A stretch of 5,754 nt of DNA. Origin: a virus (Monodnaviria; Loebvirae; Hofneiviricota; Faserviricetes; Tubulavirales; Inoviridae). Below are positions 1,027 to 2,624 of this stretch, one piece after another; the stretch's first letter is position 1; the number at the start of each line of letters is the position of its first letter. Under the pieces are notes generated by a model. The model saw only the letters and a program-made list of their open reading frames with translations. It made no database searches and was not told where the DNA came from. Made by a program: the position numbers and the translations under genes. The stretch is taken from positions 1 to 5,754 of IMG/VR virus record IMGVR_UViG_2698536559_000001; one strand, 5' to 3'.

Positions 1027-2624
1027 AATTAAATAAAACAATGACAGCGTTTTTATTATTTTCTCTGTCTTTCTCCTGTAATGTCCGTGCTGATGCTTCA
1101 CTGGCAACAAATACTTTTACATCTGAGTTATCAGGTGTGATTAACCGTAAACTGATTTCTCTTGGTGCTGATGCCGCCGCAATATCTGCAACGCTTTCCG
1201 GTTATTCGCGTGCGGCAGCTTCTTTTGCGTCAAATTATGCGGCTTCAATTGGAATATCATCTTCGGCAATGACCTGGAGTACGCTTGCTTATGGGCTGGG
1301 TGTAACGACTGTCAGTATTGGTATTTATGCTGTTGGTAAACCTTTTGCGGAAGAAATTGCAAAGCTGGCTCTTGAGAAAAACGGGTATAATGCTTTTTTC
1401 TCGACACCTGCCATGTCCAGTGGCTCTAAAGTCTGGATTGGGTCAATGTATTCTTGTGGCTCTGTTATCAGTACATCTCCTTTTTCAGTGGCTTCGCAGC
1501 TTTTAAATTGTCTTTCGGCTGAATCTTCTCCGTCTCTGACTCGTTCCTATTACTCCCCTAAGACTACTGTTTCTTCTCTTGAAGGTTACACTTTTTACTA
1601 TATTTCTAAGTATAATGGTCGATGGTCTGAAAGTACTTTATATGTTTATTCCTCAGTATTAGGTTCTGATTCGGATACTTATTGTGACCAGGGACAGGTG
1701 CTTTTTACACCTTCAGGGGGTAGCTCATCCTGTATTGCAGCGGTTACTGAGAATCCGTTTTCATCTGATTATTCCACACCAGTTATTTCAGGTAATAATC
1801 TTGCTTCTCAGGATATTGCCGATATTCTTAATGGACTGACAAAGCAGTTAGATGGCCTTTCATCTTATGACGGGGTTTCATCGTCTTCATTGTATTTTAC
1901 TGCTTCTGATGTTGATAATTATCGCTCGACTGTAGATATGTCCGGTGGTGATTCCGGTGGTTTCACCGGAACAGGAGAAATAGCCATACCGCCTACGCCG
2001 GAAGGTGACACGGAATCATCTGGCGGTAAATATACACCTCCGGTTGTTGATCCGGATTTTACCCCAGTTTCTGGTAATGGCAGTTCTGGCTCCAGTGGCG
2101 GAACGGGGTCAGGCACCGGAACAGGCACCGGAACAGGTAGCGGAACAGGCACCGGAACAGGCACCGGAACAGGCACCGGAACAGGCACCGGAACAGGCAC
2201 CGGAACAGGCACCGGAACAGGTACCGGAACAGGAACAGGTACCGGAACAGGTACCGGAACGATAACCGGCGTCGGAACAGGGTCTGCCAGTACCACGGTA
2301 ACAGGTGATGCCACGGTAAATGTTAATGTGACCGTGACAAATGATTTTGGTACTGCACCGGATGTATCCACGCCAGATATTTCATCACCTGAGCCATCAT
2401 CATTTATCTCTCCGTTGTGGGATATGTGGCCTTCTGCGCGTGATTTTTCACTGACAATTCCACGGGGTCAGTGTCCTGTTTTTACATTCAATATCTGGAA
2501 TAAAGATTATCAACTGGATACTTTTTGTGTGCTGCTTGATACCGATGAAGTCAGGGCCACTTTCAGGGTGATTATGACGCTGATTGGCTCCATGCTTTCA
2601 TTCTTTATTGTTCTTCGGTCCTGA
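1017..2624 (+). CDS. Minor coat / adsorption protein (pIII-like), about 530 aa
   Basis: N-terminal signal peptide ([22 protein letters not shown] then DA), a long central Gly/Ser/Thr linker including (GT)n, and a C-terminal hydrophobic anchor ([18 protein letters not shown]) preceded by a Cys-containing segment, matching the pIII domain plan of Ff phages. The start is ambiguous: GTG 1017, GTG 1023 or ATG 1041, with a G-rich stretch at 1012-1020 as possible Shine-Dalgarno. The N-terminal domain does not resemble M13 N1/N2 as far as I can judge. Confidence 0.75.
2112..2261 (+). repeat. Tandem 12-nt repeat (GGCACCGGAACA, about 12.5 units) encoding a (Gly-Thr)n linker inside the pIII-like gene
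   Basis: Direct reading: near-perfect head-to-tail copies of GGCACCGGAACA, with variants GGTAGCGGAACA and GGTACCGGAACA and one 6-nt half unit at 2232-2237. The unit length is a multiple of 3, so copy-number change keeps the reading frame. Confidence 0.9.

Follow-up and report, generated by a model that had tools for sequence, protein, structure and literature searches.

The stretch analysed here, referred to throughout as the window, comprises the 5,754 nucleotides (nt) of the IMG/VR virus record IMGVR_UViG_2698536559_000001, and its sequence reads as the morphogenesis module of a filamentous phage (inovirus). Between the genes for the major coat protein and for a pVI-like minor coat protein, at the position of gIII, lies a gene encoding a putative adsorption/minor coat protein, and a tandem array of 12-nt units runs in frame through its coding sequence. 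The gene and its parts are as follows (aa, amino acids).

1023..2624, + strand: putative adsorption/minor coat protein gene in gIII position; the GTG at 1023 gives 533 aa, with 1017 as an alternative GTG start
1023..1091, + strand: probable Sec signal peptide, read from the sequence by eye
2100..2285, + strand: whole G-[T/S/V] low-complexity coding segment, made of leader, array and tail
2112..2261, + strand: tandem array, 150 nt; 12 units of 12 nt and one 6-nt half unit; consensus GGCACCGGAACA, coding Gly-Thr-Gly-Thr
2337..2621, + strand: conserved C-terminal domain (95 aa); invariant Cys codons at 2472-2474 and 2526-2528 around a predicted beta-hairpin, followed by a hydrophobic helix

The NCBI-annotated relatives of the gIII-position protein begin MKLNKT, and a hydrophobic C-terminal anchor can be read from the sequence of the window protein. 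The Gly-Thr array is placed between a 359-aa N-terminal part and the conserved 120-aa C-terminal anchor domain.

An earlier note on this DNA had described the array as a perfect 12-nt repeat encoding an uninterrupted linker. Its coordinates, its period and its 12.5 copies (parsed from 2112 in the frame of the open reading frame (ORF) 1017/1023-2624) are correct, but the repeat is less regular than this description implies. Just 8 of the 12 full units are exact copies of GGCACCGGAACA; unit 3 is GGTAGCGGAACA, coding Gly-Ser-Gly-Thr, and three of the full units are GGTACC variants. The half unit, GGAACA at 2232-2237, shifts the register of the array, and the longest stretch over which the exact period of 12 is kept measures 81 nt (2141-2221). 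Each 12-nt unit consists of two GGNACN hexamers, and written in hexamers the array reads CaCaSaCaCaCaCaCaCaTaaTaTg (C = GGCACC, T = GGTACC, S = GGTAGC, a = GGAACA, g = GGAACG). An independent call by Tandem Repeats Finder gave positions 2110-2233, a period of 12, 10.3 copies, 95% matches and a score of 227. The unit is present far above chance, with 8 exact copies and 10 copies with at most one mismatch, compared to 0.01 expected from 200 shuffles.

The array is preceded by a degenerate leader unit, GGAACGGGGTCA, coding GTGS, and followed by a degenerate tail, ATAACCGGCGTCGGAACAGGGTCT, coding ITGVGTGS. In the encoded peptide this produces a run of 54 residues of G-[T/S] dipeptides (2100-2261; 2 Ser in 27 dipeptides), in agreement with the roughly 50 residues of Gly-Thr reported earlier. 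The segment corresponds to residues 360-413 of the 533 and is 50% Gly.

The earlier note had also proposed that this linker is variable in length, and had suggested comparing the copy number across relatives. This comparison returned different counts both in the same lineage as the window and in a sister lineage, with near-identical flanks in each, and thus supports the proposal. Using an exact 33-nt pattern from the left flank of the array in the window, we retrieved two IMG/VR contigs and one metagenome contig of the same lineage (L019-L021). Their arrays count 21, 14 and 19 of these 12-nt units, compared to the 12.5 units present in the window. The arrays were delimited by the flanking motifs GGAACGGGGTCA and ATAACCGGCGTC, both of which are conserved in the three contigs. 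The 1-kb flanks are 96-98.6% identical, the left one without indels and the right one with at most one 1-nt gap. Note that the order of the unit variants also differs among these arrays.

The sister lineage was represented by 17 complete E. coli genomes (L001-L017), in which the gene is present as an allele that differs in its N-terminal domain. No two of the 17 arrays are alike; they range from 174 to 318 nt (29-53 hexamers), while the flanks on the N side are at least 98.5% identical and those on the C side have a median identity of 100%. Each of the 17 proteins has an N-terminal part of 347 aa and a C-terminal part of 110 aa, and the G-[T/S] run between them spans 68-116 aa (54-116 aa across the 18 alleles that include the window). 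The repeats of this lineage, GGTACRGGCACTGGAACG and GGTACGGGTACAGGCAGY, have a period of 18 nt and encode G-T/S, as does the 12-nt GGCACCGGAACA in the window. Unit 1 is composed of the hexamers GGTACG-GGTACA-GGCAGY (GTGTGS) and unit 2 of GGTACR-GGCACT-GGAACG (GTGTGT), and the counts of the two units vary independently of each other. In four pairs of sister genomes the flanks are identical and the arrays different. The steps that separate the arrays of near-identical genomes are 6, 12 or 18 nt, and the frame is never broken. As predicted from a 12-nt unit, the frame is kept in all 21 arrays examined, namely those of the window, the three same-lineage contigs and the 17 sister genomes. Regarding the recent expansion that had been read from the likeness of the units, the blocks of identical units in arrays whose flanks differ by 1.4-4% would fit such a history, which we infer.

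The gene that carries the array was assigned to the gIII position because of the order in which the genes of the window are arranged: major coat protein, this gene, pVI-like protein, Zot and secretin. The neighbouring features are listed below.

455..706, + strand: major coat protein gene (pVIII-like); phrog_2186 with E=2e-15, Pfam Phage_Coat_B below its cutoff
2642..2929, + strand: pVI-like minor coat protein gene; DUF2523, phrog_974
2941..3999, + strand: pI/Zot assembly ATPase gene; Pfam Zot with E=2.7e-23, phrog_197 with E=2e-74
3996..5255, + strand: pIV secretin gene; Pfam Secretin with E=1.8e-25, phrog_1012 with E=1e-115
5665..5692, + strand: dif site at the prophage/chromosome junction; 27/28 match to E. 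coli dif

The order major coat protein, gIII-position gene, DUF2523, Zot and secretin is likewise annotated in 17 RefSeq genomes. The 27/28 match to dif at 5665-5692 identifies the element as a prophage integrated at this site.

The C-terminal domain defines a protein family. An index-free search with the 120 C-terminal residues of the protein found 216 representative clusters at E<=1e-3, while a word-indexed protein search with the C domain returned one fragment only. In the full-length matches listed (about 300-740 aa), the domain sits at the C-terminus. An AlphaFold2 (AF2) model of the domain, with a mean predicted local distance difference test (pLDDT) score of 72.5, predicts a short helix, a hairpin between the two Cys and a long terminal helix (pLDDT 84-94), in an extended, non-globular arrangement. 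A Gly-rich segment of low complexity directly precedes the C domain in most of the closest relatives, and in 23 of the 126 full-length members of the family as a whole. GT-type runs recur in distant members (P0058, P0066, P0100 and P0147), and other repeats of G, S, T, E or D occupy the linker position in distant relatives (P0002, P0004-6, P0058, P0066, P0100 and P0147). One of them, P0002 (561 aa, 41% identical), has at this position a repeat of longer period, about 14 aa (TGTGTGTSTGEGTS). Since its repeat is of a different type, distinct repeat architectures have expanded independently at the linker site.

As to what this protein is, only its C-terminal part matches PHROGs (phrog_7187 and phrog_3942, both of unknown function). 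No match was found in 50,697 phage records, either for the window using megablast or for the gIII-position protein using tblastn, and a pattern search of genome contigs for the gIII-position protein gave 51 pattern matches, none of which was confirmed. Only distant gut-metagenome inoviruses matched the pI protein among the phage records, none above 44% identity. Among 5,426 complete E. coli genomes, the window matches 27 at about 90-92% identity, never over the N-terminal half of the gIII-position gene. Since there is no significant match to g3p in sequence or in fold, we consider the protein an analogue of pIII by position and architecture rather than a demonstrated member of that family; based on gene order and architecture, it is a putative virion-tip adsorption protein. 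Thus, the earlier description of the array as a linker between the N- and C-terminal domains of a pIII-like protein is backed by the gene order, by the C-domain family and by the Gly-rich segments of the relatives, with pIII-like to be taken as an analogy.

Our results suggest that the array is, very probably, an in-frame intragenic variable-number tandem repeat (VNTR) coding for a (Gly-Thr)n spacer in the adsorption/minor coat protein of a dif-integrated E. coli filamentous prophage. As expected for a VNTR, the tandem copies are beyond chance, the unit is a multiple of 3 and lies in frame, and the copy number differs between near-identical alleles. Since the sister lineage uses other codons and an 18-nt period, yet encodes Gly-Thr/Ser, the constraint acts on the peptide and not on the DNA. 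Units would be gained and lost by replication slippage or by RecA-dependent unequal recombination between units. The peptide may serve as a flexible or extended tether between the N-terminal part, presumably receptor-binding, and the C-terminal anchor at the virion tip, a role suggested by analogy with the glycine-rich linkers of the Ff, IKe and UPΦ g3p proteins. A change in copy number would thereby shift the reach of the tether and leave the protein intact. Most of the length variants are probably near-neutral.

Several observations weigh against this interpretation. The array lengths are those given in public assemblies, and the four tandem copies of the sister prophage present in strain RIVM_C037884 share a single accession for the gIII-position protein (WP_229318968.1), so that no variation was seen at that scale. 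The gIII-position protein has no Pfam family. A profile of its C domain found no g3p in the PDB, and aligning this domain to the C domain of the f1 g3p with hhalign (using an f1 sequence that was checked against 8b3o) gave a probability of 0.5%. Foldseek of the C-domain model against the PDB gave nothing significant, and against BFVD gave weak matches only (best E=0.03; an inovirus 'attachment protein' at E=1.1). The full-length AF2 model has a low mean pLDDT of 40.7 and is poor over its whole length, so that the coil in which it shows the GT run (pLDDT 23-42) supports disorder of the run only weakly; this model was also too poor for analysing the N-terminal domains or for a fold search with them. 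Finally, a longer linker in IKe gave no selective advantage, according to work cited in PMC7307601.

Concerning the strain just mentioned, the sister prophage (L018; NZ_CP086622.1 2721707-2762233) is present there in at least four head-to-tail copies with a period of 7,982 nt.

The array also affects how this prophage is recovered in draft assemblies. In a collection of 15 billion proteins, the closest clusters have 184 and 162 members, which are largely E. coli entries named 'partial'. Not one of the 30 listed fragments spans the array; 7 of them stop at the repeat or within it, and 5 start within it or just behind it. This proves the repeat to be a place where the contigs of draft assemblies break. 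The earlier note had expected a hotspot for assembly collapse; what the fragments document is breakage rather than collapse of the array. As a consequence of these breaks in short-read E. coli assemblies, the databases contain many entries of the type 'partial hypothetical protein', and annotation or typing of the prophage needs long reads or polymerase chain reaction across the array. The array could in turn serve as a fine-scale VNTR marker to track the prophage.

The failure of drafts at this locus raises the question of whether the array length, or its variation, is itself a product of collapse or mis-assembly. In addition to the 12 of 30 listed partial proteins that end or start at the repeat, with none spanning it, no array of the lineage is shorter than that of the window, which is also the sole one with an odd 6-nt half unit, and short-read assemblies are able to close short arrays only, a bias in what is recovered intact. 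However, the longest periodic stretch, of 81 nt, lies within reads of 150 nt, and collapse alone would not yield the differences seen in the internal order of the unit variants. Moreover, 17 chromosome-level assemblies contain intact, in-frame arrays with constant flanks, and the four tandem copies in one genome have one protein accession in common, which also speaks against an artefact. We consider an artefact of this kind quite unlikely. Alternatively, (Gly-Thr)n could be a structured or modified stalk, either an extended beta or polyproline II-like rod or an O-glycosylated, mucin-like one, whose length is under selection, for example to span the capsule, the O-antigen or the periplasm. With its beta-branched Thr, GT is a stiffer sequence than the GGGS found in Ff. 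None of the 18 alleles lacks the tract, which is long in all of them and longer in L019-L021 than in the window; the same dipeptide is kept despite different DNA units, and GT-type runs recur in the distant family members described above. This stalk is nevertheless doubtful, since AF2 predicts no structure in the GT run (with low confidence), a Gly-rich segment in just 23 of the 126 full-length members makes it dispensable in the wider family, and a two-fold range of lengths among near-identical phages argues against a tight optimum.

The repeat could also act at the level of the nucleic acid, whether in the transcript or in the single-stranded genome of the phage, as a structure, a packaging signal or a regulatory element, or it could encode the 150-aa (Pro-Val)n ORF of the opposite strand (1919-2371). 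The GC content of the array is high (64%, compared to 45% for the window), and five of its six frames are without stop codons, which mechanically generates ORFs on both strands. As single-stranded DNA, however, it folds no better than expected (z = -0.95; 37 of 200 shuffles fold as well), and in the sister lineage the unit and period differ while the pIII frame still yields the same peptide. As for the antisense ORF, all of it falls within a gene that RefSeq annotates in the 17 sister genomes and whose reading frame all 21 arrays preserve. A role of this type is scarcely credible. The opposite-strand (PV)n and the +1-frame (APEQ)n ORFs were both rejected as by-products of a repeat with stops in one of its six frames. 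A collagen-like phage fibre repeat was rejected too, since Gly occupies every second residue and not every third (G-X-Y).

A VNTR coding for a spacer in a tip protein has clear precedents among other filamentous phages. In the UPΦ prophages of the Enterobacterales, gene III is the gene with most variants (95 in 229 genomes), which differ mostly in the number of GGGES repeats (PMC7307601), and the glycine-rich region of the IKe g3p is described, in the work of Bruno & Bradbury 1997 as cited there, as diversifying within a few generations (PMC7307601). As occurs with UPΦ and IKe (Lineavirus), the window encodes a Gly-rich linker between the N- and C-terminal parts of a putative attachment protein by means of a repeat whose number differs between isolates; and like UPΦ, the element is a dif-integrated filamentous prophage of an enterobacterium. 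Unlike them, it belongs to a different phage group, its motif is GT, occasionally Gly-Ser, and not (E)GGGS or GGGES, and its arrays are longer (54-116 aa).

The comparison with Ff (f1/fd/M13) gives a similar picture. In the cryo-electron microscopy structure of f1, the elements of the pIII C domain are a helix, a Cys-bracketed hairpin and a long hydrophobic helix, and flexible linkers rich in glycine carry the N1-N2 domains (PMC10175506). The window protein would share with the Ff g3p the succession of signal peptide, N-terminal domains, Gly-rich linker and C domain with a Cys-bracketed hairpin and hydrophobic helix, as judged from its sequence and from the predicted model, and as in Ff its gene lies upstream of gVI-gI-gIV. 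It differs from the Ff protein in having no detectable sequence or fold homology to it, in having one long linker instead of two (G1 and G2), and in using GT instead of (E)GGGS.

An in-frame intragenic VNTR is also present in the same host species. Domain II of E. coli tolA contains an in-frame repeat, with a unit length of 15-18 bp, whose copy number ranged from 8 to 16 in 234 isolates; contraction of this repeat occurs at 6.9e-5 and is RecA-dependent, and the number of repeats was shown to change susceptibility to fd (PMC3477136). As in the phage gene, copy number sets the length of a spacer-like segment. tolA is, unlike the phage gene, a host gene whose repeat encodes a Lys/Ala-rich alpha-helix and has measured phenotypic effects. 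The phage VNTR might be adaptive, with tether length matching how far the adsorption domain extends to a dimension of the host that varies in its turn; the clearest candidate would be the repeat of the co-receptor TolA, and another the thickness of the capsule or O-antigen. We regard this as very improbable; if it were true, the phage VNTR and the host tolA VNTR would be partners in a length-matching arms race. The Thr-Gly repeat of the Drosophila PERIOD protein is built from the dipeptide seen here, again out of ACNGGN/GGNACN hexamers, and its natural variation in length is a classic case. This likeness is compositional only, PERIOD being a eukaryotic clock protein of unrelated origin and function.

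Since copy-number-variable g3p linkers have been published for other filamentous phages, we consider our finding real but ordinary, and by itself it opens no long-standing question. What is new here is the phage group, which is uncharacterised and has no close deposited relative, together with the Gly-Thr repeat and the longer arrays. With this result, the copy-number-variable g3p linker of IKe and UPΦ is extended to dif-integrated inoviruses of E. coli whose adsorption protein is unrelated; this suggests that length-labile, repeat-encoded tethers arise repeatedly in the tip proteins of filamentous phages.

The adsorption gene is mosaic. Its N-terminal region of about 250 codons (1023-1790) is too diverged from the allele present in L001-L017 to be detected by megablast, and in P0003 the identity is 61% at the amino-acid level, compared to about 90% for the rest of the prophage. 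From these sequences, the N-terminal divergence looks like a swap of the receptor-binding domain. Several draft fragments end at the mosaic boundary, at about aa 254-271 (P0028, P0029 and P0037-P0039). Immediately in front of this region, a 60-aa ORF at 844-1026, without family match, overlaps the GTG start of the adsorption gene. Where the window has this ORF, the relatives annotate a 171-nt hypothetical gene (e.g. WP_000107046.1).

Directly 3' of the major coat protein gene, at 727-749, is a perfect palindrome, GGGCGGATATCCGCCC, followed by TTTTTT. By analogy with the terminator that follows gVIII in the Ff phages, it is probably an intrinsic terminator; having no loop, the palindrome escaped the terminator scan. 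In the pI/Zot gene, an imperfect direct repeat of 25 nt (2 copies, 84% matches; 3615-3662) lies across a hydrophobic segment.

About 400 nt of non-coding sequence separate the secretin gene of the window from the dif site. Nested inverted repeats (5524-5537/5608-5621 and 5556-5570/5580-5594) are located just upstream of dif, and resemble the folded single-strand attP of the XerCD-integrating phages of the CTXφ/YpfΦ type. As occurs with CUS-1, YpfΦ and CTXφ (PMC4266046), to which it is likened here by description only, the element has dif integration, tandem prophage copies (in the sister prophage) and a core of Zot and secretin; no named phage record is close to it, as already seen with its pI protein. 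In sister loci, the secretin gene is followed by a gene of the phospholipase D family (L001 7980-8678; L002 7682-8380), which is either phage cargo or a chromosomal neighbour. Some sister prophages have a secretin gene that is either cut by the IS21-like ISEc62 or split into two ORFs (NZ_CM135148.1, NZ_CM135147.1 and L013, which is NZ_CM128596.1), and these copies are probably defective.

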